A DNA stretch of 25,451 bases from assembly GCA_043821645.1 (NCBI GenBank), contig JBDRCO010000015.1:1-25451 (forward strand), given 5' to 3'. Of this stretch, positions 3,854-25,304 are shown piece after piece (the first letter of the stretch is position 1; each line of letters starts with the position of its first letter). The position numbers and the translations under genes are program-made. Source of the stretch: Pseudomonadota bacterium. GTDB lineage: Bacteria > Myxococcota > JACRCW01 > JAFGSX01. A model generated the notes under the pieces. It was not told the origin of the DNA. It did not search any database and saw nothing but the letters and a program-made list of their open reading frames with translations.

Positions 3854-4017
3854 GACAACCTCCCCCTTGAAGCTGCCGAACGGCAGGGAAAGGCTAGCAC
3901 GGCCGTCTGTCACATCAAATACGCTCCGTACGACCGAAACTACTTCAGGTGTCGCATGGGTCCGGAACCCGTGCACCAGCGGGCGCTCTCGTTGAATCGC
4001 TCGCCGGCCTCACCACC

Positions 4018-5040: not shown

Positions 5041-5130
5041 GTCGCCTCCACACCCCTCAAGCGCCCAGCCCAGGATCCGAGCCTCCAGGACCGGATCCCG
5101 GCCATCTACAAAGCCTGCCCTCGGCTGCCT

Positions 5131-6204: not shown

Positions 6205-6242
6205 GCTTGCTCCTCGTGCTGCGGCTGATCGCAGCCCTCACC

Positions 6243-6274
6243 ATCATGACGCCCGACCCTGACAGCATCTGACA
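6243..6274 (-). promoter_or_regulatory. Motif copy TGTC-N7-GTCAG-N10-CATGAT
   Basis: Minus strand tgtc agatgct gtcag ggtcgggcgt catgat, about 40 nt upstream of the FHA gene. Confidence 0.6.
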
Positions 6275-6365
6275 CAGTCGCGACCTGGCCCGTTGATGTC
6301 GGCAGGGGTCAGCGGAGGAGCGAGTGGCTGGTCAGGACGCTTGGGTGCTTGTGTTTCATGCGGTG

Positions 6366-6383
6366 AAATGATATACATCATTT
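6366..6383. promoter_or_regulatory. AT-rich palindrome, probable operator
   Basis: AAATGAT-atac-ATCATTT immediately before the ATPase start. Confidence 0.5.
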
Positions 6384-6384
6384 A

Positions 6385-7620
6385 ATGAAAATGTATAAAG
6401 TCCGGTGGGTTGACGAACTCCTCACCTCGGCTCTGAGGGTCATGCCGGTGACCGTCGTGACGGGAGCCCGGCAAACCGGCAAGACCACGGCTGTACGCGA
6501 GCTGGGAGCAGGCAGACAGTTCTACAGCCTGGACGACATCAGCATCCTGGACCTGGCGCAGCGGGATGCGTCTCAGTTGCTGAAGAGTCGACCCGTGACG
6601 ATTGACGAGGCCCAGCGAGCTCCGGGCCTTTTCCTGGCGGTCAAGCAGGCTGTCGACGAGCGACGTCATCCCGGTGACTTCATCCTGACCGGGTCGGCCA
6701 ACCTGAACCTCGGTGACCTCGTGTCCGAGTCGCTGGCAGGCCGGGCCCTCTACCTCGAGCTTCCTCCCTTCTGCCCTGCGGAGTGGCGAGCGAGGGAGGG
6801 CAGGCTTGCGCCGCTCGATCAGCTCTTCGAGGAGAGCTTTGATCCTGGCGACTGGCCATGTGAGGAAGGCGCCTGGGCTGCCTGGTTGCTGCGCGGCGGC
6901 TTTGCTCCGTCGCTGGAGCTGGCTTCCGATCAGGACCGCGGGCTCTGGCTTGGCTCCTACGTGCAGACCTACCTCGAGCGCGACCTCAGGCAGCTCAGCG
7001 CCATCTCCAGCCTGCCGGACTTCCAGCGGCTCATGGTCCTCGCCGCGCATCGCTGCGCGAGGCTCCTGAACCAGGCAGACCTGGCGCGTGACGCAGCGCT
7101 ATCCCACGCCACTGCTCATCGCTACATCAACCTGCTCGAGGCAGGCTTCCTCATCACCAGGCTCCGACCCTACACCGCCGGTTCGGCGAGGTCCGTCGTC
7201 AGGACACCAAAGCTCCTGTGGAACGACTGTGGTCTCGCGGCGTGGCTCGCGGGGCTGCGCCGTCCCGACGACGTCATGAAGCGTCCGGACACCGGCTTCT
7301 GGCTGGAGCAGGCGATCTTCATGACACTTCAGACCTGGCGCGCGCTCGATCCTGTCGAGCGACGACTCTACTTCTGGCGCGACAAGTCTGGCCGCGAGGT
7401 GGACTTTGTCCTCGAGAAGCGTGGTCAGCTCGTGGCCATCGAGTTGAAGCTGGGTGGACAGGTGAGCGCGGGTGACGCTGATGGACTCAGGGCCTTTCGA
7501 GACTCGCTCAAGCCCGGGCAACACCTCGTCAGATCCGTTGTCATGCATGGCGGGACAGCACAGCCCCTCGGCTCGGACATCTTCGCCCTACCCTGGGGAT
7601 GGCTGGTCCCTGCTGACTGA
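6385..7620 (+). CDS. AAA_14 ATPase with DUF4143 / PD-(D/E)xK C-terminal domain
   Basis: GARQTGKTT, IDEAQ, LTGS, Y.ERD, PKL...D.GL, EVDF...AIELK. Start is 6385 or 6391. Confidence 0.92.
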   Translation: MKMYKVRWVDELLTSALRVMPVTVVTGARQTGKTTAVRELGAGRQFYSLDDISILDLAQRDASQLLKSRPVTIDEAQRAPGLFLAVKQAVDERRHPGDFILTGSANLNLGDLVSESLAGRALYLELPPFCPAEWRAREGRLAPLDQLFEESFDPGDWPCEEGAWAAWLLRGGFAPSLELASDQDRGLWLGSYVQTYLERDLRQLSAISSLPDFQRLMVLAAHRCARLLNQADLARDAALSHATAHRYINLLEAGFLITRLRPYTAGSARSVVRTPKLLWNDCGLAAWLAGLRRPDDVMKRPDTGFWLEQAIFMTLQTWRALDPVERRLYFWRDKSGREVDFVLEKRGQLVAIELKLGGQVSAGDADGLRAFRDSLKPGQHLVRSVVMHGGTAQPLGSDIFALPWGWLVPAD

Positions 7621-7800
7621 TCTCATGGGCAAAGATCACAACCTGCTACGACTGATCGCTGCCCTTTGAACGATGACGTGCGATCGTGACAGCCCCTGAT
7701 TCTCATACGCTCCACCGGGCCCCATCACGGCTCCCTGCAAGCGAGGCCTCTGCTTGTCCGCTCCTTCCAGGTAGACGGCCTTCACTGATTTGCATTCAGA

Positions 7801-7829
7801 TTGCACATTAATGTATATACGTGTAATAT
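7801..7829 (+). promoter_or_regulatory. Sigma70-type promoter, leaderless geometry
   Basis: TTGCAC-N17-TAATAT, then 6 nt to ATG 7836. AT-rich, imperfectly palindromic spacer. Confidence 0.7.
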
Positions 7830-7835
7830 GCCGTT

Positions 7836-9011
7836 ATGATAGAAAGAAACCTGTCACCAATACTGCTGGAACGGGCGACCCAGTACCCTGTGGTGACCGT
7901 CACCGGTCCACGGCAGTCCGGCAAGACGACGCTGTGTCGGGCAGCCTTTCCCAAGCACAAATACGTCTCCCTGGAGCCGCTGGACACGAGGTCCTACGCC
8001 ACCGAGGACCCACGTGGCTTCCTCCGAGAACACTCACATGGCGCCATCCTCGACGAGATCCAGCATGTCCCGGGGCTGCTGAGCTACCTGCAGGTCGAGG
8101 TGGACGAGCGACCCGAGCCTGGACGCTTCGTGCTGACAGGCTCGCAGCACTTCGGGATAGGTCAGCAAATCTCCCAGTCCCTGGCAGGCCGGGCGGCTGT
8201 GCTGGCCTTGCTGCCGCCGACGCTCGATGAGCTGCGACGCTTCGACGCTCCCTTCGACGACCTGTGGAGCGTGCTGTGCTCGGGTGCCTTCCCCCGCATC
8301 CACGACCGCGGCATCCCGGCCCATACCTGGCTTGGCGACTACGAGACCACCTACGTCCAGCGCGACGTGCGGCAGCTCCTCAACGTGGGTGACCTCGGCA
8401 GCTTCACGACCTTCCTGCGCCTGTGTGCCGGGCGCTCGGCGCAGGAGGTCAACCTCTCCTCGCTGGCAGCGGACACGGGCGTCGTCACCAACACGGCCCG
8501 GGCCTGGCTCTCGGTTCTTGAGCAGAGCTACCTCGTTATTCGCATCCCGTCCTGGCACACCAACCACCGCAAGCAGGTGGTCAAGGCTCCGAAGCTCCAC
8601 TTCATCGACACGGGGCTGCTGTGTCACCTGCTGGGCATCCACGAGCCCGGGCAGCTCGTGCACCATCCACTGCGCGGGGCCATCTTCGAGAGCTGGGTTG
8701 TCTCGGAGATCTTCAAGGCGCAGGTCCACTCGGGGCAGGTGCCGAGGCTGTTCCACTACCGGGAGGCCCGCGGGCCGGAGGTGGACTGCATCGTGGAGCA
8801 GGCAACCTCACTGAGGCTGGTCGAGGCCAAGTCGGCCGCCACCGTGTCCGAGCACTTCTTCGAGCCGCTGAGGAAACTCTCGGGTCACCTGCAAGGGCTC
8901 GCCGGGGTGACCGACGTCTCCTGCTTCCTGGTCCACGGAGGCCAGACCTCCCAGCACAGAACTGACGTCGAGGTCCTCGACTGGTCCCACCTGCACGACG
9001 CCGGCTGGTGA
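7836..9011 (+). CDS. AAA_14 ATPase with DUF4143 / PD-(D/E)xK C-terminal domain
   Basis: GPRQSGKTT, LDEIQ, LTGS, YVQRD, PKLHFIDTGL, EVD...LVEAK. Confidence 0.93.
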   Translation: MIERNLSPILLERATQYPVVTVTGPRQSGKTTLCRAAFPKHKYVSLEPLDTRSYATEDPRGFLREHSHGAILDEIQHVPGLLSYLQVEVDERPEPGRFVLTGSQHFGIGQQISQSLAGRAAVLALLPPTLDELRRFDAPFDDLWSVLCSGAFPRIHDRGIPAHTWLGDYETTYVQRDVRQLLNVGDLGSFTTFLRLCAGRSAQEVNLSSLAADTGVVTNTARAWLSVLEQSYLVIRIPSWHTNHRKQVVKAPKLHFIDTGLLCHLLGIHEPGQLVHHPLRGAIFESWVVSEIFKAQVHSGQVPRLFHYREARGPEVDCIVEQATSLRLVEAKSAATVSEHFFEPLRKLSGHLQGLAGVTDVSCFLVHGGQTSQHRTDVEVLDWSHLHDAGW

Positions 9012-9021
9012 TCTGTCCGCG

Positions 9022-9345
9022 CTAGTAGCCCTCGTGGTGCACGCCGTACTCGCTCCAGGCCTGGTCCGGGTTGCCGTAGCGGTCGCGGATGTAGGCGAGC
9101 ATGCCGGCTGCCTCGTTGAGCGGATCGCCGATGCCGGCACGGCCGTCGGGGTAGTAGCGGTCGACGTTGCTCAGCAGGAGCTGGCCGAGTCCAGTGGCCG
9201 ACGAGCGCGCCGTGATGTGGCCCTGCTTGAGCTCGTCGTGAATCGAACCCCACTGTGAGGGATCGTTGGCCCGTGCGCCGTAGGTGTAGTTGGGCACACC
9301 CACCCGACCACCGCTCTCGCGGCTCAGGATGTTCTGCAGGCCCTG
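9022..9345 (-). pseudogene. 5'-truncated lytic transglycosylase (SLT-like) gene
   Basis: Extending the 93-aa ORF upstream gives QGLQNILSRESGG...SSATGLGQL...DPLNEAAGMLAYIRDRYG (catalytic ES and GLxQ motifs). In-frame stop at 9346-9348 and no start before the ES motif. Confidence 0.72.
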
Positions 9346-9417
9346 TCAGTTCGATTCAGCCCTATGCGTTCGGCTTCAACGCCTCCTCACGCAGCGACAG
9401 CGGGACTCGGCGGGTCA

Positions 9418-11733
9418 CTAAAATAGTTCCAGGAAATTGACGTCGAACAAGTACTTCGCAGTAAATCCGACTTCATTCACGTAAGTTGCGCCGGAAGAAT
9501 CAAAGACCAATGATGGTCTGTAATATGGCTCAAAGAACACTGACGGATACTCCACCCACCCTATCGGATTGGAAATGATTTTGTCCCAATTCCAAGATGT
9601 TGTGATAGGAATAGGCAGGCCAAAAAACAGGTAAGGACTCGGACCTGAAAATGGCCCGCCAGCTATCCAGGAAAAGCCAACACCGACGTTCGCGTATGCG
9701 TTGACACCTATTTCTATATAAGGGTTCAGCAAGAAGTACTTGCCCGTCATCATAAGTCTAAAACCACCGCCAATCCAAGGGACAACATACAAATAGCTAT
9801 TTAGCGATGGTAGAGCTAAAGTGGTTTCTAATCCGAAATTGCCACCCTCGACTCCATTTTCACCGATTGTGAACTCAATGGATGGACCTACTGTTATTGC
9901 TTGTCGCGTCGCATTGTCTAGCGTTTCGCCCACTTTCTCCATGGATTCGGTGAACTGATCTGCTCCATTTTTGCTCACGACAAAATTGACCGGAAGCGCT
10001 AGTGGGCTGTTGGTCGCTTGGTTGTATGAAAAATATACCGCCCCCTTGTAGGTGCCGGGTGTTAGTCCCTCTGCGTCTACGGTAATATGCCGCACGTTTG
10101 GGTTGTCGTCTGATTGACCGCTTGTGACAAGCCAGTTGCCAGAGTCTTCCACGCTTAATGATTCTACAATATATTGCACATTGCCGTTTTCAATATCGAC
10201 GTATATTTCTTGCGAAATTGGAGAAGGGCCGTTCGCGAATCCGGTGAAATAAAGCGAATCCGGTGTGACTCTTATGACGGGTTTCCGTGGTTTCTGTTCC
10301 CACGTGATTTTTGGTACCACGTCGGAATCACATGTACTGTGGTCGAGGCTGATAGTGTGATTGCCGGCGGAAACGTATATCTCGCACAAGGACTGCGTGC
10401 CTCTTTCAGTCTCCGGACAAATTGGTTCTGCGTCAAACATCAATTTATCCTGTGGGCTTCGCTCAATAATGAATTGGTAGGTGTCACTGTTCGTGAAATA
10501 GATCTGCTTTTCCCAATGGACCGAAAACTGGCCGCCCGGCGGTCCTCCGACCGGAGAAACGATATGTCCTTGAGCGAACTGAAGGAATTCCTCGCCGTCG
10601 TCTCTTATCTCAGATGCGGCGCCCGCCAAGTTGCAGTTAGCGTAATACTCTCCCTTCCAATGCTCCACGAGAACGGAGTCCGGCTCGTACGGAGTAAACA
10701 GCGGATAGCTGATAATGTCATTCTGCTGCTGGTCGAAAGAGAACGAAGTACATAGTCCTGCCTGAAATATCTTCGCGTCACTAGTCACAGCGTTCGAATA
10801 CTGTTCGTGTCGATCACTCAGTTTCTTGGCGGCATTCAAAGCCCCCTGAATGCGCTTCCGCAACACCGCATTTGATGACTGTGCTTTGTTGGCAGCAGTT
10901 ATTCTCAACCATTTCTCTTTCGTGTTGCGACATTGGCGACCACTGGTTCTGAGATCTCGGTATTGCGTATCGCGTTCAATGGTGGCTTCTCGTTCTTTTT
11001 CTAAGGTTCCTATTATTGCCTTTAATGGTGTGCTTTCCGGAGCAGTATCCTCGCGTCTTCCCTGCCACGCGAAAGCGGCAAATGTCGGAGGGACGAGGCT
11101 GGGCCAAACTTTTTTGTATTTGCGGTAGTTGTTGCTCTCTCGTTTATAATGCTTTTGAACATTATTAATGACTTCTCGAAAATAGGCATCGCTGATCTCG
11201 TGCTTCTTATTCGATTCGGGATCGTCGCATAGCCCGAATTCCTGTCCGTAATGGTCTCTTGCCACCAGATATTGGTAGATCTGAGCTCTTAGTTCGACCG
11301 CGTCATCGAGAAGACGGTCGATGTATTGCGTGGCTATTTTTTCGTTCTTCTTTTCTGATAGACAGCACTCATCGGCCACCCTTTGATAGGCCGGTCGGTC
11401 CTCGATGAAATTCATCGGTTTCTTTAACTCATCACAGGAGATGATCGTTTGCTCTAACTGAATTTTTCTCCGATTGTACAGACAGACTAGAAGGTTGGTT
11501 GTATCCAGTAGGCCGGAGCCCGTTCTCTCCGCAGGGCAGAGGTATTTCGCGTTGGTGGATTGAATGGCCTCGATTTTTTTGTCACCTTCAACGCACTGGA
11601 CCCCGGAGAAATTCCTGTCCTTGAAGTTTTGGCGCAGGCAATCAGTGCAATCGCTCTGACAGAGCGCGCTTGCTGGCATAAATGAACAGGCCAATATGGC
11701 GAGAAATAGAACGCCGGCTTCTTGTGATGTCAT
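9418..11733 (-). CDS. Large exported protein with PA14-like and BACON/Ig-like domains and a beta-rich C-terminus
   Basis: Signal peptide; FSVHWEKQIYF...YQF...AGNHTISLDH (PA14-like); VTPDSLYF...WLVT...GLTPGTYKG.V...NSP..LPVNFVV (BACON-like); ends in Phe. Confidence 0.72.
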   Translation of the reverse strand: MTSQEAGVLFLAILACSFMPASALCQSDCTDCLRQNFKDRNFSGVQCVEGDKKIEAIQSTNAKYLCPAERTGSGLLDTTNLLVCLYNRRKIQLEQTIISCDELKKPMNFIEDRPAYQRVADECCLSEKKNEKIATQYIDRLLDDAVELRAQIYQYLVARDHYGQEFGLCDDPESNKKHEISDAYFREVINNVQKHYKRESNNYRKYKKVWPSLVPPTFAAFAWQGRREDTAPESTPLKAIIGTLEKEREATIERDTQYRDLRTSGRQCRNTKEKWLRITAANKAQSSNAVLRKRIQGALNAAKKLSDRHEQYSNAVTSDAKIFQAGLCTSFSFDQQQNDIISYPLFTPYEPDSVLVEHWKGEYYANCNLAGAASEIRDDGEEFLQFAQGHIVSPVGGPPGGQFSVHWEKQIYFTNSDTYQFIIERSPQDKLMFDAEPICPETERGTQSLCEIYVSAGNHTISLDHSTCDSDVVPKITWEQKPRKPVIRVTPDSLYFTGFANGPSPISQEIYVDIENGNVQYIVESLSVEDSGNWLVTSGQSDDNPNVRHITVDAEGLTPGTYKGAVYFSYNQATNSPLALPVNFVVSKNGADQFTESMEKVGETLDNATRQAITVGPSIEFTIGENGVEGGNFGLETTLALPSLNSYLYVVPWIGGGFRLMMTGKYFLLNPYIEIGVNAYANVGVGFSWIAGGPFSGPSPYLFFGLPIPITTSWNWDKIISNPIGWVEYPSVFFEPYYRPSLVFDSSGATYVNEVGFTAKYLFDVNFLELF

Positions 11734-12506
11734 TGCTTGGCACCCGTTGGCAGGTATTCATATCTTCTTGATTCTAGTGGCGCTCCAGTTGGGCCAAGGA
11801 ACGTCAGAACGATTGCTCTCAGCCCCTCGGCGTTCGTCGAGTACGAATATTGCTCCTGCTCGCCTTGGACCGATGTCGGCCTTATTTTTGTCCCGGAAAT
11901 GTTCGTCGGAGCGAGTCCGTCTCTTTCGATCGTGAGTCTGAAGGCATTGAAGTGGGCGATAGCGAAATCTGCCCTTGCGTCTTTTTCACGCGTCGATATT
12001 TTGAAGAAAACGATCCGACCTCGCATTACCTCTGGCGGATTCGATGGGTCGGGAGCGGGTGGCGGTGGTGGTGGGGACTCTGTATTGGCTTGATACGATG
12101 GCGCCTCCTCAACGGGCTGCGTGGTTTTCGAGAGAGAAGTGGAAGAGGCTTCTGGAGTAGCCTCTGGTGAAGCAGATGATGGCGAGGCTGAAGAACCAAC
12201 AGAAACGTCGGAAAGCTGCCTTACAGGACGATATGGGTCCCATCCGAACAGTGAGAGAAAGAAACCGATCACGAAACTCCAGAACAAAAATACTACAATA
12301 ATTTCGGCAATAAGTGCCACGACGTAAATTACACCGACCGAGATGACATCGAGGACTGCCGGAATAGTACTCGCCAGCCACGTAGATACGCCTTTTGCCA
12401 CTCCGTCTGCTATGCCTTTTGCGAGGCCCTTCTTGAGGGCGTATGAAACAACGGTGAGAATCGACGCACTGGCAAAATCAATAAGTAGGCCATCGAATAA
12501 GTCCAT
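11730..12506 (-). CDS. Membrane protein with Ser/Pro-rich linker
   Basis: Hydrophobic N-terminal helices and a PPPPPPAP linker; ATGA overlap with the 771-aa gene. Confidence 0.7.
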   Translation of the reverse strand: MDLFDGLLIDFASASILTVVSYALKKGLAKGIADGVAKGVSTWLASTIPAVLDVISVGVIYVVALIAEIIVVFLFWSFVIGFFLSLFGWDPYRPVRQLSDVSVGSSASPSSASPEATPEASSTSLSKTTQPVEEAPSYQANTESPPPPPPAPDPSNPPEVMRGRIVFFKISTREKDARADFAIAHFNAFRLTIERDGLAPTNISGTKIRPTSVQGEQEQYSYSTNAEGLRAIVLTFLGPTGAPLESRRYEYLPTGAKQ

Positions 12507-13067
12507 AAGGCACCCGGTTTCCTGTAAAAATTATCGCAACCGAACTAGAGTTCACCACCCGCTCGCAGTAGTACACCATCGAGGATAAATTTGGCGAAAT
12601 GGAAAGCGCAAGTGTTTACGTGCATAGGGTCGTGCAGGGCTGAAGTAATTTGAAAATATCAAGAACAGAATCGCGGCCAGACTAGGTTAATTGTTACCGT
12701 CGAGAGAAATAGTTGCCGCCGACCACACCCATCGGCGGTTGTAGGAAACACAAAGTGCCTCTTCGTCGCCGACCTCGGGTACCAGCTCCTCGTGGCCCGT
12801 CTCCAAATCCATCGCCATCGATTGTAGCACCGGCCTCCGAACCAGCGGAAACGCCGCCAGCGGGCAGCCTGAGCAAACGGGTGCCTTGCCGCCATGGCTC
12901 GGCGGCGCAGATGTGGTAGCAGGTGACGTCGTCAGGTTGTCAGCAGAGTTCGAACGCAAGCTCGGGGTCTGAGGAGGCGCTCGGGCTGAGGCAATGGTCG
13001 GGACCACGGCGGGCTGACCGACGTGGTGCTGGTTGGTTGAAGTCCGCCCGGACCTGTGCCGGACGGA

Positions 13068-13092
13068 CGAAGGTCTTCCCGAAAGACCTTCG
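13068..13092. repeat. Perfect 10-bp inverted repeat
   Basis: CGAAGGTCTT-cccga-AAGACCTTCG. Confidence 0.75.
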
Positions 13093-13249
13093 ACAACATC
13101 GTGGCCGCGCTCGCCGGCACCTCGGGCCTCACCTTCGCACCGCTCCCTGCCAGGGACCGGTCAGATCAAGCCCGCGCCTCACGTCTCTGGATCAAAGGAC
13201 GAACCCCCAAGCGACACCCCCCGTCGCCACCAGGAGCTACCATTTCATC

Positions 13250-14286: not shown

Positions 14287-15612
14287 TCAGGTGGTGACCG
14301 GAGCCTCGAGTAACCATTCGTGCGCCGGCTGCACGACTACCCGGGGAGCCTTCACAGGCCTCACGGCATCCTGGTCGAGTACCAGCAAGCGAAGTGACGC
14401 CTGCGGGTGCTCCTTGGATGCTGCATTGAGGGCACCAAGCTCCCGGGCGAGGGTCCCGGGTGCCGATGGATCCACGCATACCTGGATCAGCTCTTCACCC
14501 CAGCCGGGGTAGCGAGCAAGAAAATCCACCTCGAGCCCGTCGCTGGTCTTCACGTAGCCGACGTCAGCACCGCGCCGCTGCAGCTCGTTGAACACCACGG
14601 TCTCCAGTGCGTGACCCAGGTTGGTGCGTCCGCTGGTGTCAAAGGCGCGGATGAGCCCGGGGTCGGCGGGGTAGAGCTTGCGCGGGTTCGAGTTGCGCTT
14701 GCGCTCTGATTCCGTGGCCAGGGAAACCGCTCCGATGAGGAACGCATCGACAAGGTGGCCCAGCATGGCGTGCAGCGCGTCCTTGGCAATCCCGAGCCCC
14801 TGCGCCTTGAGGTCCAGGTGCAGCCTGTGGACACTGAAGCTTCCGGCCGGGTTGCGCAGGCACTGACGCACGAGCCAGCGAAGAGCCGCCACCTGGGTCA
14901 CCGCATACCTCTCCACCACGTCGCGGAAGACCACGGAGTCCACGTAGCCTTGAAGGAGCGCCACCCGCAACGACGCCGGCAAGCCCTGCGCCTCGGGAAA
15001 TCCTCCCTCGATCAGGAACTCTCGAAAGCGCTTCTCCACCAGCGATCGCTGGGCGGGTCGCCAGCGCCGGGGCTCCTGTGTGACCTCCTCTCCTCGGTGG
15101 CGAAGGAACTCACCGAAACCGAATGGCAGGATGACCGTGGCCAGGCCTCGCCCTCGCAGCGAGGTGTGGACCTCGCGGGAGAGCAGGCGAGCTGACGAGC
15201 CAGCCACCACCAGCTCGACCTTCTCCGTGTCCAGCACGCGACGTGCGAACCGCTCCCAGCCTGGTACGAGCTGTATCTCGTCCAGGTACCAGTACACGGT
15301 CGAGTGACCTCGCAGCTCGGGGAAGCGCCTGAAGTACTCCTCGAGCAGGAACCCGAGCTGTTCCAGCTCGAGCCCTGACAGGCGATCGTCGTCGAAGCTG
15401 AGGTAGATCGCACGCTCCGGCGGCAGCGTCTCACGGTGCGCGTCGCGAAGCTGGTACAGGAAGCTGGTCTTGCCCGCTCGACGCATGCCTATCACGGCGT
15501 GCACCTTGCCTGGCATCTCGGGCAGCCTCGTATCTCGGCGAGTCAGCGCGAGAGGCGGCTCTGCGACCAGAGCGCTGCTCAGCTTCTCGTTCAGGACGGG
15601 GTGAATGGCCAT
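14287..15612 (-). CDS. AAA_14 ATPase with DUF4143 domain
   Basis: GMRRAGKTS, LDEIQ, GSS, GGFPE, RDVVERY, RKLY..DPG, EVDF...LIQV. Confidence 0.92.
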   Translation of the reverse strand: MAIHPVLNEKLSSALVAEPPLALTRRDTRLPEMPGKVHAVIGMRRAGKTSFLYQLRDAHRETLPPERAIYLSFDDDRLSGLELEQLGFLLEEYFRRFPELRGHSTVYWYLDEIQLVPGWERFARRVLDTEKVELVVAGSSARLLSREVHTSLRGRGLATVILPFGFGEFLRHRGEEVTQEPRRWRPAQRSLVEKRFREFLIEGGFPEAQGLPASLRVALLQGYVDSVVFRDVVERYAVTQVAALRWLVRQCLRNPAGSFSVHRLHLDLKAQGLGIAKDALHAMLGHLVDAFLIGAVSLATESERKRNSNPRKLYPADPGLIRAFDTSGRTNLGHALETVVFNELQRRGADVGYVKTSDGLEVDFLARYPGWGEELIQVCVDPSAPGTLARELGALNAASKEHPQASLRLLVLDQDAVRPVKAPRVVVQPAHEWLLEAPVTT

Positions 15613-18367: not shown

Positions 18368-19414
18368 ATGGACCCATTCAAGAACCTCCAGATCACTCCT
18401 GCGCTGCTCAGGTCCATCGCGCGGATCGACGAGTTCAAGGGCCGCTGGTCAGCCCTGGGCAAGCTCGCACCCGAGAGGCTGAGCGCCCTGCGTCGCGTCG
18501 CCACCATCGAGTCCGTCGGCTCCTCCACCCGCATCGAGGGCGTCAAGCTGACGGACGACGAGATCGAGAAGCTGCTTGGTGGCGTCGAGATCCGATCGTT
18601 TCGCACGCGCGACGAGCAGGAAGTCGCAGGCTACTCGGACCTCATGAGCCTGATCTTCGACTCCCATGATGGGATGACGCTGACCGAGAACATGATCAAG
18701 CAGCTCCATGGCGTGCTGCTCAGGCACAGCCACAAGGACCAGCGCCACCGTGGTCACTACAAGACGTTGACGAACAGCGTCGAGGCCTTTGACTCGGACG
18801 GCAGGAGCCTGGGCGTCATCTTCGCCACGGCCAGTCCCTTCGATACACCACACCTCATTCGGGAGCTGGTCGAGTGGACCGCGGCCGCGCTCGACGAGAA
18901 CCGCCATCATCCACTGCTCGTGATCGCTGTGTTCGTGGTCCGCTTCCTCGCCATCCACCCTTTTCAGGACGGCAACGGCCGGCTCTCCCGTGCACTCACC
19001 ACCCTGCTCTTGCTCCGTGCCGGTTACGCTTACGTACCCTTCAGCTCACTCGAACGTGTCGTCGAGGACAGCAAGGACACGTACTGCCTGGCCCTGCGTC
19101 ATGCCCAGGCGACGCTCGACCGTGACGAGTCGCAGCTCGCGGAGTGGATCGCGTTTTTCATCGCCTGCCTGCAAAGGCAGGTCGAGGTGCTGTCGACGAA
19201 GCTTGAGCGCGAGAGGGTCATGGGAGCCCTGCCACCTCTGTCGGAGCAGCTCCTGGGCTACGTGCGAGAGCATGGTCGGCTGACGGTGCGAGACGCCGCG
19301 ACTCTGACCGGAGCCAGCCGCAACACGATCAAGTACCACCTGCAGCAGCTTGTTCGCTCCCAGGTTCTGGCTCGTCGTGGCCAGGGCCGGGGCACGTGGT
19401 ACGACAAGGCGTGA
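18368..19414 (+). CDS. Fic-family protein with C-terminal HTH
   Basis: HPFQDGNGRLSR catalytic motif; N-terminal SSTRIEG inhibitory-type motif; C-terminal wHTH ending GQGRGTWY. Confidence 0.95.
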   Translation: MDPFKNLQITPALLRSIARIDEFKGRWSALGKLAPERLSALRRVATIESVGSSTRIEGVKLTDDEIEKLLGGVEIRSFRTRDEQEVAGYSDLMSLIFDSHDGMTLTENMIKQLHGVLLRHSHKDQRHRGHYKTLTNSVEAFDSDGRSLGVIFATASPFDTPHLIRELVEWTAAALDENRHHPLLVIAVFVVRFLAIHPFQDGNGRLSRALTTLLLLRAGYAYVPFSSLERVVEDSKDTYCLALRHAQATLDRDESQLAEWIAFFIACLQRQVEVLSTKLERERVMGALPPLSEQLLGYVREHGRLTVRDAATLTGASRNTIKYHLQQLVRSQVLARRGQGRGTWYDKA

Positions 19415-19545
19415 CAGGTTCCGAGGCTACTCCACGGAGTCGGCGAACCTTCCACCAAGAGACCCAGGTCCTCTTCGGCGTCCGGCTCCAGGCCTTCTGC
19501 CCATGCACTTCGTGCCTGGCCTCCCCAACCCCTCAAAGCTGCCCC

Positions 19546-19666
19546 CCTGCCGTCCTGCCTACCTGATTGTCCCCTGCCGTCCTGCCTACCTGCCGTCCTG
19601 CCACCTGCCTACCTGATTCTCCCCCTGCCGTCCTGCCACCTGCCTACCTGCCTACCTGATCTGCCC
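19546..19666 (+). repeat. Tandem array of ~8-bp CCTGCCNN / CCTGATTN units (left copy)
   Basis: cctgccgt cctgccta cctgatt... repeated; same units as 24856-25275. Confidence 0.9.
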
Positions 19667-19676
19667 GGCCAAGCCC

Positions 19677-19907
19677 TCAGCTCCCCTCACCACTCCCGCG
19701 CAAGGTCACACCCACCGGCCTGTGCCCCGCGTGAAAGCTGAGCGACAGCGTCAGCACCCCCTGACTCTGGAGCTGTCTCAGGAACTCCCACGGGATGCAG
19801 ACGGGCAGGGGACGGGAGTCCGTGGTCCGGATGTGCAGCCCTTCGGGCAGGGGCTCCAGCTCGTAGCCCTCGTTGAGGAGGTACGTGTCTTCCCGCGATG
19901 CGCTCAT
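19677..19907 (-). CDS. Small hypothetical protein
   Basis: 76 aa; AGGAG RBS; ATGA overlap with the PcfJ-like gene stop. Confidence 0.6.
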   Translation of the reverse strand: MSASREDTYLLNEGYELEPLPEGLHIRTTDSRPLPVCIPWEFLRQLQSQGVLTLSLSFHAGHRPVGVTLRGSGEGS

Positions 19908-21499
19908 GGTGCTCCTGCCTTTCCTTCAACTGCCGTGTCGTCGCCCACAGGCCCAAAAGCGATGCACGCTCCGTTCCCGTTCACCCCGTCGAGCCAGCCG
20001 TCCAGCACTTTTCTGAACCCTGCAGGCAGCAGGGCATTGCGAGGACCGCTCACCTCGACGAAGGACCAGCCTTCATCGCCACGTGTCAGCAGGGCCGTTG
20101 CGTGGTGCTCCTGCCAGGTCGCGTGGATGACCACGTCACCCTCCAGGCCTCCATGAGACGCCACCATGGAGTGGACGCAGTGCTCCATGAGGTAGGACTC
20201 CTTGAGGAGCTGGTCCCAGGTCGTGAACTCCTCGATGACGAGGTCGGGTTGCGTGCAGGGCAGGGCAGGCAGCGCCCCTGCGCCGCAGGGCCCGGCAAGA
20301 AATTCCACGTAGTACTCCAGCAACACCTCTCTCTCCCAGCGGATCATTCTGGACACCAGCCTGTCAGGCGGGGTCGAGAGAACGGGCCAGCGCTTCGTGT
20401 TATCCAGGTAGTGCAGGAACCTCGTCAGCAACCAGCCAAGGCTCGTGCTGTCGTCATGTAGTTGCAGCTCCCCGTCCGCAAATCGCGTGTCCAGGGTGTC
20501 CGCACCGTCGAGATGGTGGTGCATCTTGTCCGCGATCGCCTGCAGCTCGACCAGGTGGCGCGATACGTGGCGAGCAAGCTGCCTTCTTGTCTCCTGCTGG
20601 AATGCTCTGCGCGGATTGCTGGCCAGCGCGAGCGCGGACATGGCCCTGTACCAGACCAGGTTCGTCCTGGGATCTGCCCTGGGGATGTCATCGACCAGGA
20701 AGCCGCGGGAGCTGGGCAGGATGCTTCCTGCTGGTACCAGGGGACCAGCCCTCATCACCAGCAGCCTGCAGGTGCTCCTGTCCCTGTCCTCGCTTTCCGC
20801 GGGCAGAGCGCAGGAGTGCAGATAGACCTCGAGCACCTCGTCGACGAGCTTCCTGAGCACCATCCCATCGACCGCGGCCTTCACCAGCCTGCCTGTGTCC
20901 GGGATCCGTGCCTGTTCGAGCTTGGCCAGCAGGGTCAGCACGCCAGGGCAGGTGTCGACGAGCTGGGCCAGGCGCCCTGTCGGATCCGTGACCAGCAGCC
21001 TGTAGATGTTCCACCGAGCAGCCCTGTGGAACTGGCTTGCGGGCTGCCACGCCTCCCGGTCGACCTGGTGCGCCAGGTGTTGCCTGGCCCTATCGAGGGC
21101 AGGGCGGATCGCCGGGATGGTGAGGAAGGCGCTGGTCCTGCGGGCGAGGCAGGTCGCGAGCAGTGCCACGGCCACGGCGCCTGGACCAGTGTCGGTGCCG
21201 AGCCGCGTCGGCTCTCCGGGGCGAGTGCCGCGGGCTGCATCGCCACCAAGCTCGATCAGGAAGTCCCTGCCCACCCGCAGGTGAGCTTCGAGCCTCACTC
21301 TCCCGCCCTCGAGATAGCTCAGGTAGACGCCCCGGGGCAGCAGGCTCAGGTACAGCTCGTCCCGCCCCGTGAGGCTGGCGAGCCTCGTGAGCCGCCCTGC
21401 ACCGGGTGCGAAATCGGACAGCCCGAGGGTCCTCCCTCCAGGCGTCCAGCCAGGCATGACCTCGGCCAGCAGGCCCTGCGCGGCCAGAAACACGCTCAC
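19904..21499 (-). CDS. PcfJ-domain-containing protein
   Basis: C-terminal LLKESYLMEHCVHSM...ATALL...WSFVEVSGPRN...W matches the PcfJ-like E(G)xxMxHCV...aT...Q..G..N pattern. Start refined to GTG 21499, overlapping the ATPase stop. Confidence 0.8.
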   Translation of the reverse strand: MSVFLAAQGLLAEVMPGWTPGGRTLGLSDFAPGAGRLTRLASLTGRDELYLSLLPRGVYLSYLEGGRVRLEAHLRVGRDFLIELGGDAARGTRPGEPTRLGTDTGPGAVAVALLATCLARRTSAFLTIPAIRPALDRARQHLAHQVDREAWQPASQFHRAARWNIYRLLVTDPTGRLAQLVDTCPGVLTLLAKLEQARIPDTGRLVKAAVDGMVLRKLVDEVLEVYLHSCALPAESEDRDRSTCRLLVMRAGPLVPAGSILPSSRGFLVDDIPRADPRTNLVWYRAMSALALASNPRRAFQQETRRQLARHVSRHLVELQAIADKMHHHLDGADTLDTRFADGELQLHDDSTSLGWLLTRFLHYLDNTKRWPVLSTPPDRLVSRMIRWEREVLLEYYVEFLAGPCGAGALPALPCTQPDLVIEEFTTWDQLLKESYLMEHCVHSMVASHGGLEGDVVIHATWQEHHATALLTRGDEGWSFVEVSGPRNALLPAGFRKVLDGWLDGVNGNGACIAFGPVGDDTAVEGKAGAP

Positions 21500-23646
21500 G
21501 CGCCGAACCCGATGGACCGGATCGGTCCCTTCTTGAAGGAACACTCGTCCGTCAGCCGGCGGGCGATCTCGACGCAGGTGGGCGTCTCGCCCAGGGCGTC
21601 GAGGCGCCTTTTCACGGCGGCGTAGTCTCCGGGAGCGAGCTGGTGCAGGACGCGCACGGATGTGAGCGCCTGCTCCACGTCATCAGCGTCGTGCCTGTCG
21701 CCGACGAAGTATTTTTTGAACAGCGAGCAGGCCTGCTCGGGCCTGAGCCAGTGGAACTCGGCCTTGAACACGAAGCGCCTCAGGGCGGCCTGGTCGATGT
21801 CCTTCCACAGGTTGGTGGTGCACACCGCGATGCCGCGAAAGACCTCGAGCTGCTGCAGGAACTCGTTGACCTGAGAAACCTCCCAGGAGCGGAAGGCCAG
21901 GTTCCTGTCGCGCAGCATGCTGTCGACCTCGTCGAACAGCAGCATCGCCTCGGTATCCGAGGCCTCCTCGAAGGCCCGGGTGATGTTCTTCTCGGACTCC
22001 CCGACCCACATGCTCAGGATGTCGGAGCCGCGCTTGCACACGACCTTGCGCTTCATCCGCCAGGCCAGGTACCTCGCGTACTCGCTCTTGCCCGTTCCAG
22101 GTGCCCCGTACAGGCACAGGGTCACGCCGCGGGGTCCCTCCGGCTTCCACCCTTCAAGGCGGTTCGCCAGACCCTCCAGGTCGTCGCTGCTGTTGAGCGC
22201 GGTGACGTCGAACATCCCGGGGTCGAAGGCCTGCACCAGCGCCGGGTCTTTCCCCGTCATGAGCTTGATCGTGGGCGTCAGCACCTTCTCGATGCTCTCG
22301 ACGCTGGGCTTGCGGTCCGCGGCCATGATGGTCGCGCAGCGAACGGCCGTGGCGAGCTGGGCCGGGCTCACCTCGTGGAGCTCGGCCAGCCTGTCCACGT
22401 CGGCGGACGAGATGCTCGAGCCCTCGCCGAGGTGCCTTCGCAATGCCCGGGCTCGCTGCGCGGCGTTCAGGGGCTTGAACTCGATGACCAGGCTGAAGCG
22501 CCTCAGGTAGGCGACGTCGAAGCGGTCGGTCTCGTTGCTGATCCAGATGGTGGGGAGGGGGTTGTTCTCGAGCTGGTGGTTGAACCACTGCTTCGACATG
22601 TGGCCGGAGGCTCGACCGCCCAGGAAGCCGAGCGGCCCGTCCCTCGAGAACAGGTCCTCCATCTCGTCGAACAGGATGAGGCCGCGGTCCTGGGCCAGCA
22701 GGCTCTGGCTGAGCAGCAGCGAGCGCAGGCGCTCGTTCGGGAGCGGCGACTCGCCCTGCTCGTCGACCCGGCCGGCCTGGTACAGCTCGACACCGAGCAG
22801 CTTGGCCAGGAGCCTCGCCAGCTCTGTCTTGCCTGTGCCCGTGGGTCCGTGCAGGAGGATGTTGATGCCCTTCTCGCGCAGCTTGAGTGCCCCGCCAAGG
22901 AGGGCCAGGACCGAGTCGACGCTGCCTGCCTGGTGCTGGAAATCCGCTCGCTCGAGCGTGGTGTCCGGGGCCCTGTCGAGGAATCGCGCGAGCAGCGAGA
23001 CCCTGTCGAGCCCGGGGGAGGAGAGCGCTTCCAGCAGCGAGGCCTTCAGCTCGATCTTGGAACTCAGGAAGATGTTGTTCTGCTCGACGCTGACGAGCCC
23101 CGAGCTCATCAGCGTTCCAGCCGGGCTCAGGGCCTTGCGCACCAGCTCATGGCTGGCGGCGATGCAGATCCCGATGACCTTCGCGCATCCGCCGAGGCTG
23201 AGGTCGCCCGCGTGGTCGATCAGTTCCTTGAGCTGGGAGTGGCTGTGCACAGCCGCCAGGAAGGTCAGAGCCTGCTTCTCCAGGGGATCGAGGTCCAGCA
23301 CCTGTGCGAGGGCGGCGAGGCAGCCTGCGAAGGGCTCGGCGGGCTCGGGCGGCACCACGGGTGCCTTGCCATGCCTGCGCTGGACCTTCTTGAGGGCGCG
23401 GCTCAGCTCGGCCCGCGTGAGATCGTCGTGAACCAGGCCGTTCTCGATGTCGACCTCGGCAACCGCGTGCACGATGTCGCAATCCTCTATCTGCCGCAGC
23501 GCCTTGCCGGTGAGCTGGCGGAAGGGACCATGCGCGATGAAGTTCAGCGCGTGTATCCTGACGCACTCGTCGAGGGCAGGGTCGATCTGCCCCCCGATTC
23601 CGTGCATGAGATGACCCAGGTGTCTCTTGTATGGGTAGTGTGGCAT
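21496..23646 (-). CDS. AAA+ ATPase with two AAA modules
   Basis: GPTGTGKT / ILFDEMED / YLRRF and GAPGTGKS / LLFDEVDS / TTN / ALRRF. AAGGAG RBS before ATG 23646. Confidence 0.92.
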   Translation of the reverse strand: MPHYPYKRHLGHLMHGIGGQIDPALDECVRIHALNFIAHGPFRQLTGKALRQIEDCDIVHAVAEVDIENGLVHDDLTRAELSRALKKVQRRHGKAPVVPPEPAEPFAGCLAALAQVLDLDPLEKQALTFLAAVHSHSQLKELIDHAGDLSLGGCAKVIGICIAASHELVRKALSPAGTLMSSGLVSVEQNNIFLSSKIELKASLLEALSSPGLDRVSLLARFLDRAPDTTLERADFQHQAGSVDSVLALLGGALKLREKGINILLHGPTGTGKTELARLLAKLLGVELYQAGRVDEQGESPLPNERLRSLLLSQSLLAQDRGLILFDEMEDLFSRDGPLGFLGGRASGHMSKQWFNHQLENNPLPTIWISNETDRFDVAYLRRFSLVIEFKPLNAAQRARALRRHLGEGSSISSADVDRLAELHEVSPAQLATAVRCATIMAADRKPSVESIEKVLTPTIKLMTGKDPALVQAFDPGMFDVTALNSSDDLEGLANRLEGWKPEGPRGVTLCLYGAPGTGKSEYARYLAWRMKRKVVCKRGSDILSMWVGESEKNITRAFEEASDTEAMLLFDEVDSMLRDRNLAFRSWEVSQVNEFLQQLEVFRGIAVCTTNLWKDIDQAALRRFVFKAEFHWLRPEQACSLFKKYFVGDRHDADDVEQALTSVRVLHQLAPGDYAAVKRRLDALGETPTCVEIARRLTDECSFKKGPIRSIGFGA

Positions 23647-23674
23647 GGCGATCTCCTTCGATTGACCTCCACCC

Positions 23675-23706
23675 AGCCTCTCCCCATACTGTGACATCCG
23701 GAGTCA
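23675..23706 (-). promoter_or_regulatory. Palindromic TGAC-N7-GTCAC-N10-GAGGCT, candidate WYL-protein site and ATPase promoter
   Basis: Plus strand tGTGAC-atccgga-GTCATa lies between the divergent ATPase and WYL genes; the -10-like hexamer is about 30 nt upstream of the ATPase ATG. Confidence 0.7.
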
Positions 23707-23784
23707 TACATGAGCCGGGCCCGTCCGCTGGGCGCCTGCGGGCGTTCTGCGCAGCTCCAGGGGACAGGGGGAGGTCAACGACGC

Positions 23785-24819
23785 ATGCCCACCGCGCGCG
23801 CGAAGCCCAAGGCACCACGTCACAGCGGCCTCAAGGAGCAGCTCGTCCGGGCGCTCGCGATCTTGCGGGACCTCGACCGCATGGGCGGCATCGACATCTA
23901 CGACCTGGCAGACCGCCACGGCGTGTCGACCCGGCAGGTGCGCCGCATCATCGACGCCATCGAGGCTTCGGGGGCACCTCTGACCCAGGAGGAGGGGGAG
24001 GGCAGGCGCATGAACTGGCGCGTGGCCTTCAAGGAGAAGACGGCGGAGCTGACCGCCCTCCTCGACATGAGCCACTACCTGGCGCTGCGTGCGTCCATGA
24101 GCCAGGCGGGAGCGACGAAGCGCCGCTCGCCCATGTTCAAGACCCTCGAGGACCTGGCGAGCAAGATAGAGAAGGCTGTCGGCATGGAGGAGCGCGATAG
24201 CCTCAGGGCCATCGACGACTGCTTCCTGTCCCACGAGCGCTTCGGCTACCTCAAGGCGCCCAGGGAAGTGCTGTGGCCTCTGATCGAGGCCATTCGCAAC
24301 AAGCGCGTGTGCAGGGTGATCTACCGGGCCGCCCGGATCGACGCGAGCGACAACGAGTTCGAGCTGCTACCGCTCAAGCTCTTCGTCCACGACGAGGCGC
24401 TCTACCTGCTGTGCCACGTCCTCAAGTACCCCAACGTCACCACCCTCAACCTGCACCGCCTGCGGCAGCTCAAGGTCCTGGAGCGGACGGCCAAGGTTCC
24501 AGACTTCTTCAACCTCGAGCAGTGGGAGCGCCAGGCTTTCAAGCTGGTGACCAACGCCCCTCAGGCCCTCTACAAGTTGCACTTCGACCCCGAGGTGGCG
24601 ATCTACATCCGCGAGCGCGAGTGGCATCCCGGGCAGAAGATCAAGGAACGCGCCGACGGCAGCGTGGAGCTGAGCTTCACCTGCGCCGAGACCTACGAGG
24701 TGGCGTCCTGGGTGGCGTCGTGGCGCAACAACGTCGAGGTCCTCGAGCCAGCCTCCCTGCGCCAGCAACTGGCCAAGCTCGGCGCCTGGATGACCGAGAC
24801 CTACGGGCCGGCCGAATAG
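23785..24819 (+). CDS. wHTH-WYL-WCX transcriptional regulator
   Basis: HTH LADRHGVSTRQVRRIIDAIE; WYL-type PLKLFVHDEALYLL...LNLHRL; WCX-type IREREWHPGQ...VEVLEPASLR. GGAGGT RBS before ATG 23785 (alternative start 23710). Confidence 0.93.
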   Translation: MPTARAKPKAPRHSGLKEQLVRALAILRDLDRMGGIDIYDLADRHGVSTRQVRRIIDAIEASGAPLTQEEGEGRRMNWRVAFKEKTAELTALLDMSHYLALRASMSQAGATKRRSPMFKTLEDLASKIEKAVGMEERDSLRAIDDCFLSHERFGYLKAPREVLWPLIEAIRNKRVCRVIYRAARIDASDNEFELLPLKLFVHDEALYLLCHVLKYPNVTTLNLHRLRQLKVLERTAKVPDFFNLEQWERQAFKLVTNAPQALYKLHFDPEVAIYIREREWHPGQKIKERADGSVELSFTCAETYEVASWVASWRNNVEVLEPASLRQQLAKLGAWMTETYGPAE

Positions 24820-24855
24820 CTCTACCGCCCACCAGCTCCAAGCCTCTCCCTCCTC

Positions 24856-25275
24856 CCTGCCCACCTGCCATCCTGCCCACCTGCCATCCTGCCCACCTGC
24901 CGTCCTGCCTACCTGATTCCCTCCTGCCCACCTGCCGTCCTGCCTACCTGATCCTCCCTGCCCACCTGCCGTCCTGCCCACCTGCCGTCCTGCCCACCTG
25001 CCGTCCTGCCTACCTGATTCCCTCCTGCCCACCTGCCATCCTGCCCACCTGCCGTCCTGCCTACCTGATTCCCTCCTGCCCACCTGCCTCCTGCCCACCT
25101 GCCGTCCTGCCTACCTGATTCCCTCCTGCCCACCTGCCTCCTGCCCACCTGCCGTCCTGCCTACCTGATTCCCTCCTGCCCACCTGCCGTCCTGCCAACC
25201 TGCCTACCTGCCTTCTTGCCTACCTGCGACCTGCCGCCCTGCCTACCTGATCTTCCCTGCGCACCTGATTCCCCC
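24856..25275 (+). repeat. Tandem array of ~8-bp CCTGCCNN units with a higher-order unit (right copy)
   Basis: Recurrent cctgcccacctgccgtcctgcctacctgattccct, with no unique spacers. Confidence 0.95.
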
Positions 25276-25304
25276 TTGCACCTTGCGGCCGGAGGAAGGA
25301 ATTT
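25276..25304 (+). promoter_or_regulatory. Candidate leaderless promoter
   Basis: TTGCAC-N17-GAATTT-N6-ATG, directly abutting the repeat array. Confidence 0.5.

Follow-up and report, generated by a model that had tools for sequence, protein, structure and literature searches.

A WYL-linked tandem AAA+ ATPase with a distant PcfJ-like protein: a candidate conflict module with exchangeable partner genes

Herein, we describe a four-gene module from a bacterium of the phylum Myxococcota (GTDB), in which the gene of a WYL-domain regulator lies divergent from those of a tandem AAA+ ATPase, a distant relative of the PcfJ proteins and a small open reading frame (ORF). The window, that is, the whole stretch of DNA analyzed, is the entire 25,451-bp contig JBDRCO010000015.1 (C15), one of the 140 contigs of the 7.07-Mb assembly GCA_043821645.1 (67% G+C); handles beginning with L, G and C denote loci, genomes and contigs in our own numbering. 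The regulator gene occupies 23785..24819 on the plus strand and encodes a protein of 344 amino acids (aa) with a winged helix-turn-helix (wHTH), a WYL and a WCX domain. On the minus strand, the ATPase gene (21496..23646, 716 aa) is followed by the gene of the PcfJ-like protein (19904..21499, 531 aa, GTG start) and by an orphan ORF (19677..19907, 76 aa, ATG start). The stop codon of the ATPase gene and the GTG start of the PcfJ-like gene share four nucleotides (minus-strand GTGA at 21496-21499), as do the stop codon of the PcfJ-like gene and the ATG of the 76-aa ORF (minus-strand ATGA at 19904-19907). The four ORFs and both overlaps had been claimed in an original prediction made from the letters of this DNA, and they were borne out by the ORF list and by reading the minus strand. 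The gene starts had to be revised. The reading frame of the ATPase is open to 23697, and from the sequence its likely start is the ATG at 23646 (MPHYPYKR), which has AAGGAG 6 nt upstream. The frame of the regulator is open from an ATG at 23710, and its likely start is the ATG at 23785, with GGAGG 10 nt upstream. For the PcfJ-like gene, an alternative GTG at 21544 would give a protein of 546 aa. Between the likely starts of the two divergent genes lies a control region of 138 bp (23647..23784). The G+C content of the module (0.65-0.68) is close to that of the genome (0.67).

The ATPase matches the Pfam family AAA at 4.2e-34 in two stretches. Numbered from the start at 23646, the first module (D1) has Walker A GPTGTGKT at 267, Walker B LILFDE at 323 and RRF at 382, and the second (D2) has GAPGTGKS at 514, MLLFDE at 568 and RRF at 623. 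Across 39 aligned relatives, there is no variation in the Walker residues, in N371 and N612 of sensor 1, or in the arginines R382/R383 and R623/R624. The two AAA modules with Walker A, Walker B and RRF motifs are present as originally described, and both appear to be competent. The D2 module has the pore loop MWVGESEK (family consensus SxWVGxTE), while D1 has EQGES at the corresponding place and lacks an aromatic residue there. Since D2 carries a canonical pore loop and both modules appear competent, the predicted pattern is that of a type II, classic-clade unfoldase that would translocate its substrate through D2, in keeping with the remodelling activity that had been proposed. The closest matches by sequence among solved structures are VAT, p97 and Cdc48 (1.5e-39 to 1e-33).

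The N-terminal domain of the ATPase (residues ~1-255) was modelled with a mean predicted local distance difference test (pLDDT) score of 86.7 and is helical with a small hairpin. For residues 101-214, the wide search with VIA-align returned winged-helix matches only, whose Z of 5-6.8 does not reach the noise bar, and the Pfam winged-helix family WHD (PF22977) matched the domain at E 0.0018, below its cut-off. A Foldseek comparison of the N-domain model with the PDB gave no match at E<=1e-3. The winged-helix-like character of this domain is taken as a lead.

PcfJ-like proteins are common in large phages and conjugative elements. The 531-aa protein has no Pfam family, no match to the PcfJ family PF14284 even at E<=10, and no family in NCBIfam or PADLOC; a word-indexed protein search returned only the protein itself. 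A full HMMER search at E<=1e-3 yielded 199 relatives; the top one has E 5e-24 and 31% identity. We aligned the protein with 44 of the top HMMER relatives, and PF14284 is present in 32 of the 45 aligned rows. In an Atlas language-model search (feature score 0.96), all 30 matches fell in PcfJ clusters. The AlphaFold model of the protein (pLDDT 78.6) had nine matches at E<=1e-3 among the viral models of BFVD, and most of the named rows were phage PcfJ-like proteins; the top rows reached E 8e-5 to 1e-3 with low template-modelling (TM) scores of 0.16-0.31. Because of the PF14284 domains in its relatives, the Atlas clusters and the phage PcfJ-like fold matches, we classify the protein by sequence as a distant long-form relative of PcfJ that is not a member of PF14284 at the level of the model. 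The PcfJ-like call made earlier is therefore upheld as remote homology and fails as a direct Pfam match.

The alignment has seven invariant residues (D172, P185, G212, P273, E434, M438 and C441), with C441 present in 45/45 rows. They include an E-x3-M-x2-C motif that lies within a conserved C-terminal alpha/beta domain. The HC motif noted originally is present at residues 440-441 as part of MEHCV. Only its cysteine is conserved in relatives; the histidine is replaced in L002 (MHNCV) and L112 (MRSCV). The further proposal of a Cys-dependent modifying enzyme is not supported as it stood: its sole basis is one invariant cysteine, beside which the histidine varies, and no catalytic fold was identified in the protein. 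Foldseek gave no match of the model to the PDB at E<=1e-3, and a profile of the PcfJ alignment found nothing below E 0.16 among PDB sequences. The wide VIA-align search had a best Z of 6.4, and ~35 of its 50 rows aligned residues 411-511 to GNAT acetyltransferases at Z 5-6.2. This would be half a GNAT fold at noise level, and the candidate was rejected. We make no fold claim for the PcfJ-like protein, since the GNAT matches fall below the noise bar of Z 8. In the library searched, none of the papers found on PcfJ in phages dealt with function, and PF14284 was mentioned in none.

The third gene of the operon is, on sequence grounds, an orphan with the composition of coding DNA. Its G+C content at the three codon positions is 0.65/0.49/0.86 (0.857 at the third), as against 0.81/0.62/0.54 in an overlapping alternative frame. 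No family was found for the 76-aa protein in Pfam, NCBIfam or PADLOC and no relative in the fetched ATPase or PcfJ loci, and a search of 400 genomes of the phylum returned matches at chance level only (E ~0.008).

The identity of the regulator stands as originally called. The WCX domain (PF25583, 62.2 bits vs a cut-off of 23.9), the WYL domain (PF13280, 40 bits vs 21.8) and HTH_23 (25.1 vs 24.6) all reach their Pfam cut-offs; HTH_11 falls just under its own (23.3 vs 25). PADLOC models of WYL proteins match at 1.2e-28. By its domain matches, the protein is a true HTH-WYL-WCX regulator. The closest solved chains by sequence are 8tp8 (5.5e-8), 9pfq, 7u02 and 7tzv, in that order, with the first three spanning 5.5e-8 to 2e-6. 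We take these four chains to be of DriD type; their depositor names read just 'DeoR-family transcriptional regulator' and 'WYL domain-containing protein'.

The control region contains an imperfect 19-bp palindrome, TGTGAC-ATCCGGA-GTCATA, at 23690-23708, 43 nt upstream of the ATPase start. Five of its six half-site positions are complementary. The palindrome noted originally between the divergent genes is therefore an imperfect one, and it remains a candidate element. A promoter-like pair, TTGACC-17-CATACT, lies on the plus strand at 23662-23690. In L002, a locus with the gene arrangement of the window (see below), a similar box, GTGAGA-N7-TGTCAC, sits ~40 nt upstream of the ATPase start codon and has the 8-mer TGTCACAG in common with that of the window, and boxes of the form CGAC-N7-GTCG are seen at the corresponding place in L044 and L039; these boxes were read from printed sequence and carry no statistical motif result. 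Separately, a 12-nt inverted repeat with arms at 23662-23673 and 23767-23778 (92% complementary, 93 nt apart) lies beside both ribosome-binding sites. Each of the divergent genes thus has the 12-nt element GGnGGAGGTCAA a short way before its start region, and this could be a shared regulatory or translational element.

Relatives of the ATPase are widespread. A census of species-representative genomes confirmed at least 571 stretches, and we retrieved the 80 best as loci. A word-indexed protein search returned 348 relatives, with 36-50% identity among the matches listed, and within the phylum the ATPase is present in at least 28 of 400 other genomes. Judged by sequence, the conserved core is an ATPase of ~710 aa, with a winged-helix-like N-domain and two AAA rings. 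When the neighbours within 4 kb were clustered over the 80 loci, the WYL regulator was the sole widely recurring partner. A WYL gene lies within 3 kb of the ATPase in 17/80 loci (15 found by script, plus L003 and L006, which were lost to an overlap filter and seen in the loci themselves) and in 12 of the 48 loci whose flanks extend 3 kb or more in both directions. Divergent, tandem and convergent arrangements of the pair all occur. On viral contigs we found 38 loci with a relative of the ATPase; a WYL gene accompanies one of them and a PcfJ-like neighbour none (0/38).

While the ATPase is conserved, the genes beside it are exchanged. We examined 40 ORFs of at least 165 aa lying directly downstream of the ATPase. 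Conflict-type or nucleic-acid domains were found in 19/40: DUF2779/Cas4 (3), HepT, RtcB, SIR2, Metallophos, NERD-UvrD, Fic, patatin, RNB, GmrSD-N, PP2C, VWA, DnaE-finger, DnaN-like, PcfJ, S41 peptidase and acyltransferase-DUF3293. Another 8/40 look like housekeeping genes (e.g., PMSR, GGDEF-EAL, homocysteine S-methyltransferase and aromatic amino acid lyase), and 13/40 have no family. Helicase-nucleases of ~1100 aa that join UvrD and PD-(D/E)XK lie near the ATPase in L002, L003 and L010. Annotated plasmids present the same pattern: ATPase-DUF2779-WYL in Rhodoferax; WYL-ATPase-Sir2, with a 4-nt overlap and beside BREX-2 genes, in Sphaerotilus; ATPase-PD-(D/E)XK in Croceicoccus; and, in Novosphingobium, a WYL gene adjoining the ATPase, a PD-(D/E)XK nuclease and a UvrD-type helicase. 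Partner exchange is also observed within a single Marinobacter genome, where two scaffolds carry near-identical ATPases (L054 and L057, end branches of 0.06-0.07) with unlike neighbours. In L054, the ATPase has a PcfJ-like gene upstream, together with a WYL gene and an OGFr_N-like gene, whereas in L057 a DUF2779 nuclease gene comes after it and integrase-type genes lie on its flanks. In the neighbourhood survey and on the plasmids, the ATPase thus recurs with WYL regulators and classical defence effector domains, in partial support of the original interpretation. As a separate observation, the partner slot of two loci holds fragments of replisome proteins, namely the finger alone of DnaE (L029, 8905-9729) and the central domain alone of the beta clamp (L055, 4524-5171).

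Of 400 other genomes of the phylum, 31 have PcfJ-like matches. In about six genomes besides ours, a PcfJ-like gene adjoins the ATPase or lies close to it, and the gene orders differ. In L002, as in the window, the WYL gene is divergent from an ATPase-PcfJ pair with a 4-nt overlap, and the ATPase is 47% identical to ours. In L054, the PcfJ gene is divergent from an operon containing the WYL and ATPase genes. L122 (genome G265) has PcfJ, then the ATPase, with a convergent WYL gene, and in L118 (G202) a PcfJ gene and an HTH gene are divergent from an ATPase fragment at a contig end. In two genomes of one genus (G083 and G026), the ATPase and the PcfJ-like gene are ~6 kb apart, in islands whose neighbours include DUF2779, Metallophos, a DSP phosphatase, AbiEii and a PD-(D/E)XK protein. 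The two families co-occur in eight other genomes of the phylum, and in three of these eight the genes lie within 8 kb of each other, where chance would give ~0.04 by our own rough estimate, the genomes being related and not independent. In a FastTree phylogeny of 81 ATPases, for which long-branch and composition warnings apply, the PcfJ-linked rows need at least three label changes. A WYL gene lies 1 kb from the PcfJ-like gene in L116, a locus with no ATPase, and a VWA gene lies near the PcfJ-like relative in L124. In a further locus, L123 (G083:C1:112000-129000), co-directional genes at locus coordinates 3510-13096 encode bpMoxR, VWA, PcfJ, an 821-aa protein with no assignment and an 811-aa AAA protein; PcfJ thus has a second kind of pairing with AAA+ ATPases, unlike that of the window.

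The surroundings of the module within the window are of the defence type. Next to it, at 18368-19414 on the plus strand, lies a SoFic-like Fic gene with a C-terminal winged HTH (PADLOC 6.9e-45; NCBIfam SoFic 54 bits vs a cut-off of 550). The window also has three paralogs encoding AAA_14/DUF4143 ATPases, with matches to the PADLOC candidate system PDC-S01, at 6385-7620 (plus strand, 4e-106), 7836-9011 (plus strand, 2e-100) and 14287-15612 (minus strand, 1e-83). Other genes of the window encode an FHA protein, an ArdC-N-like protein and an MraZ-like protein. Between the PDC-S01-type genes, two overlapping minus-strand ORFs at 9418-11733 and 11730-12506 (771 and 258 aa, with no Pfam or PADLOC family) form an island with a G+C content of 0.47-0.54, as against 0.67 in the genome, and are probably a recently acquired two-gene cassette.

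C-rich tandem arrays, detected by Tandem Repeats Finder and a repeat search, flank the four-gene module on both sides. The left array (19539..19660, plus strand) is built on the 8-mer CCTGCCNN and lies between the convergent Fic gene and 76-aa ORF. The right array (24851..25276, plus strand) has CCTGCCNN units in a 101-nt super-period repeated 4.2 times, and separates the WYL gene from a 23S_rRNA_IVP-type gene. The two arrays share units and orientation. Within the assembly, the exact repeat motifs occur on this contig only; a looser array is found on contig C127 (~3450-3900), beside an ORF that by eye opens like an AAA_14/DUF4143-type protein. The last repeat unit and the start of the 23S_rRNA_IVP-type gene recur at 99% identity at the end of contig C74 (4627-4840), and both contigs break there. 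No such arrays were found in the related loci or in 40 related genomes. We therefore did not adopt the arrays as element borders; they need not be borders, because the repeat unit is tied to copies of the 23S_rRNA_IVP-type gene elsewhere in the genome.

Given this anatomy, we interpret the locus as a WYL-switched, inducible conflict module, in which an unfoldase core would work with a PcfJ-like protein occupying a slot for swappable partners. We put the probability of this reading at roughly 55%. It is favoured because a conserved nucleoside triphosphatase (NTPase) core with swappable partners is a defence-like pattern, because about one-fifth of the loci have a WYL gene, and because characterized WYL regulators sense single-stranded DNA (ssDNA). 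The anatomy of the genes, their motifs and families, the recurring ATPase-WYL pair and the exchange of partner genes are observations; beyond these, we infer that the module may be inducible, that its ATPase may unfold proteins, that its proteins may contact one another and that it may serve in defence. The process would comprise several steps. The WYL regulator would bind the imperfect palindrome, the candidate box between the divergent genes. Then, single-stranded nucleic acid, arising after DNA damage or infection, would alter the regulator, as in its characterized relatives, and the operon of ATPase, PcfJ-like gene and 76-aa ORF would be turned on. The ATPase ring would thread a protein target through the D2 pore. 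The translationally coupled PcfJ-like protein may act as an effector or as an adaptor that selects the target, in a slot that elsewhere holds nucleases, Sir2, phosphatases and others. The 76-aa protein would be a lineage-specific accessory.

Several findings, however, weigh against this interpretation. The original prediction grouped the four genes as one candidate module, and the survey of ATPase neighbourhoods did not find them to be a conserved unit: WYL genes were present in 17/80 loci, PcfJ-like genes in 2/80 only (L002 and L054) and the 76-aa ORF in none. Thus, 63/80 loci have no WYL gene within 3 kb, many of them being on short contigs. In the reverse direction, the ATPase was found in 2/15 fetched PcfJ-like loci of other genomes of the phylum (L118 and L122), and 9/12 PcfJ-like loci scanned for neighbours had neither the ATPase nor a WYL gene. 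There is no sign in the sequences of a co-evolving ATPase-PcfJ pair, since the window PcfJ-like protein is no closer to the ATPase-linked copy of L002 (27%, 65 bits) than to an unlinked copy (27%, 73 bits). Nor is the ATPase bound to defence throughout: in Burkholderiales and Sphingomonas, its loci are syntenic, with surroundings of housekeeping appearance that include RecQ, PEPCK, threonine dehydratase, SMC and GGDEF-EAL genes. Among the PADLOC system models, none matches the module beyond a partial, IetA-like match to D2. Lastly, we know of no function for any member of the PcfJ family and of no biochemical activity of its domain.

The main rival is a module for the DNA-damage response or repair, which we consider unlikely, though more probable than the other alternatives. 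In this case, an ssDNA-triggered activator like DriD, PafBC or SiwR would induce an unfoldase whose task is to remove protein-DNA complexes that have stalled or been damaged, with the PcfJ-like protein as an accessory of DNA metabolism. The solved relatives closest to the regulator, presumably of DriD type, fit such a role, as do the neighbours of the ATPase in other loci, which include UvrD with PD-(D/E)XK, DUF2779, RecQ and DnaE- and DnaN-like fragments. The N-domain, if modelled correctly as winged-helix-like, would have a fold that often binds DNA. Characterized WYL regulators sense ssDNA and control defence or DNA-damage genes (PMC11662680, PMC10693628, PMC9186387, PMC9122601, PMC12288472); DriD is activated by ssDNA and binds a site of 20 bp that directly precedes the -35 element (PMC9186387), and SiwR activates adjacent genes under genotoxic stress (PMC10693628). 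However, WYL repressors of defence systems respond to ssDNA as well (PMC11662680), and for this reason the damage and defence readings overlap. The partners themselves argue for defence: Sir2, patatin, Fic, HepT and GmrSD, with BREX, toxin-antitoxin and AbiEii genes as neighbours, typify defence islands, and the genes around the module in the window are likewise of the defence type.

Much less probable is a function in a mobile element, whereby the ATPase, the PcfJ-like protein and the 76-aa protein would serve the replication, establishment or maintenance of an integrated element bordered by the repeat arrays. The best viral fold matches of the PcfJ-like protein are PcfJ-like proteins of phages, the arrays on the two flanks match and are oriented alike, and relatives in L113, L124 and L029 adjoin transposases or integrases. 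But the window has no integrase, relaxase, replication initiator or transfer gene, the G+C content of the module is that of the genome, and the repeat unit is also tied to copies of the IVP-type gene elsewhere. Moreover, a tblastn search with the PcfJ-like protein found no match in 72,556 plasmid or 50,697 phage records, and none of the 38 ATPase loci on viral contigs has a PcfJ-like neighbour. That the genes adjoin by chance, with a self-sufficient WYL-ATPase pair and the PcfJ-like gene and 76-aa ORF as unrelated passengers, would suit the many family members without an obvious partner gene and the poor conservation of both proteins, but it is made very unlikely by the two consecutive 4-nt overlaps that couple the three genes, by the same ATPase-PcfJ overlap in L002 and by the co-occurrence of ATPase and PcfJ-like genes in several genomes, in varied orders, far above our rough chance estimate.

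Returning to the conflict module, we tentatively offer a broader view, which is a possibility more doubtful than the reading of the locus itself. The ATPase with its winged-helix-like domain, D1 and D2, often accompanied by a WYL regulator, may be the core of a large, unnamed, modular family for immunity or DNA surveillance that extends over hundreds of species. An induced unfoldase would be combined with interchangeable partners, some of which, as host copies of phage, plasmid or replisome-type proteins (PcfJ-like proteins, DnaE- and DnaN-like fragments), could serve as adaptors or decoys that steer the motor to the replication machinery of an invader. If this is true, it gives a first functional handle on the PcfJ family. 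To our knowledge, few bacterial immune systems are built around protein unfolding. Should the module protect against phages or plasmids, it would add a widespread family of systems in which a Cdc48-like unfoldase works with swappable effectors, tie WYL sensing to an unfoldase motor and provide a first biological context for PcfJ-like proteins. If it is a DNA-damage module instead, then the regulons of WYL-type activators extend to a dedicated protein-remodelling machine.

How does the module compare with known systems? The original prediction did not recognize the combination as a named system, and this agrees with our PADLOC run, in which no PADLOC v2 model names it. Nor was it found named in the literature searched, supplementary tables excepted (Tables S4/S5 of PMC9122601 could list the ATPase), and the available parts of PMC9122601, PMC13069673 and PMC13010146 mention no AAA partner. 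No literature linking DUF2779 and WYL was found, and the DUF2779 papers found were unrelated. One of the closest known systems is IetAS (Gao_Iet), whose ATPase IetA/IteA finds its best match in D2 of the window ATPase (PADLOC 2e-30, NCBIfam 6.2e-25). IetAS was reportedly described by Gao and colleagues in 2020 as a two-gene defence system of the AAA ATPase IetA and the subtilisin-like protease IetS. Both systems thus set an AAA+ ATPase beside a second protein in defence islands. However, the PADLOC match covers only positions 124-278 of the 374 of the IetA profile, and NF042959 scores 88.1 bits vs a cut-off of 510. The window ATPase is about twice the size, with two rings and a winged-helix-like N-domain, and no ORF of the module matches IetS or any protease family.

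The regulator has the domain architecture of BrxR, CapW and DriD, and like theirs its gene stands beside its presumed target operon, here divergent from it across the palindromic candidate box. In contrast to these, it has low similarity to the solved members (best E 5.5e-8), its box is unlike the DriD site (ATACGTCCGTTTCTGGCGCA), and the genes that it presumably controls form no named system. About half of BrxR homologues adjoin known defence systems (PMC9122601). The ATPase itself resembles Cdc48, p97 and VAT in having two AAA modules in one chain, an aromatic pore loop in D2 and the arginines of the second region of homology (SRH). Unlike them, it has a modelled N-domain that is helical and winged-helix-like and not of the Cdc48 type, and no aromatic pore-loop residue in D1; the NCBIfam CDC48 model gives 61.4 bits vs a cut-off of 802.65.

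The PcfJ-like protein has a remote relationship of sequence and fold to PcfJ of the Enterococcus plasmid pCF10 and to phage PcfJ-like proteins (PF14284). It differs from these in failing the Pfam model outright, in being chromosomal and in being coupled to an AAA+ ATPase. In its overall design, the module follows the logic of systems in which a conserved NTPase is joined to interchangeable effector genes in defence islands, namely HerA with Sir2 or DUF4297 and the MoxR-VWA ternary systems. Such HerA-effector and MoxR-VWA ternary conflict systems were reportedly described by Gao and colleagues and by Kaur and colleagues, both in 2020. Relatives of the PcfJ-like protein occur inside the bpMoxR-VWA operon of L123 and near the VWA gene of L124. 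However, the window ATPase is a classic AAA protein and belongs neither to HerA/FtsK nor to MoxR, and the window contains no MoxR-specific or VWA family. In conclusion, an ATPase with swappable effectors and control by a WYL regulator are both known themes, and we rate the module as an unnamed combination of them that is not categorically new.

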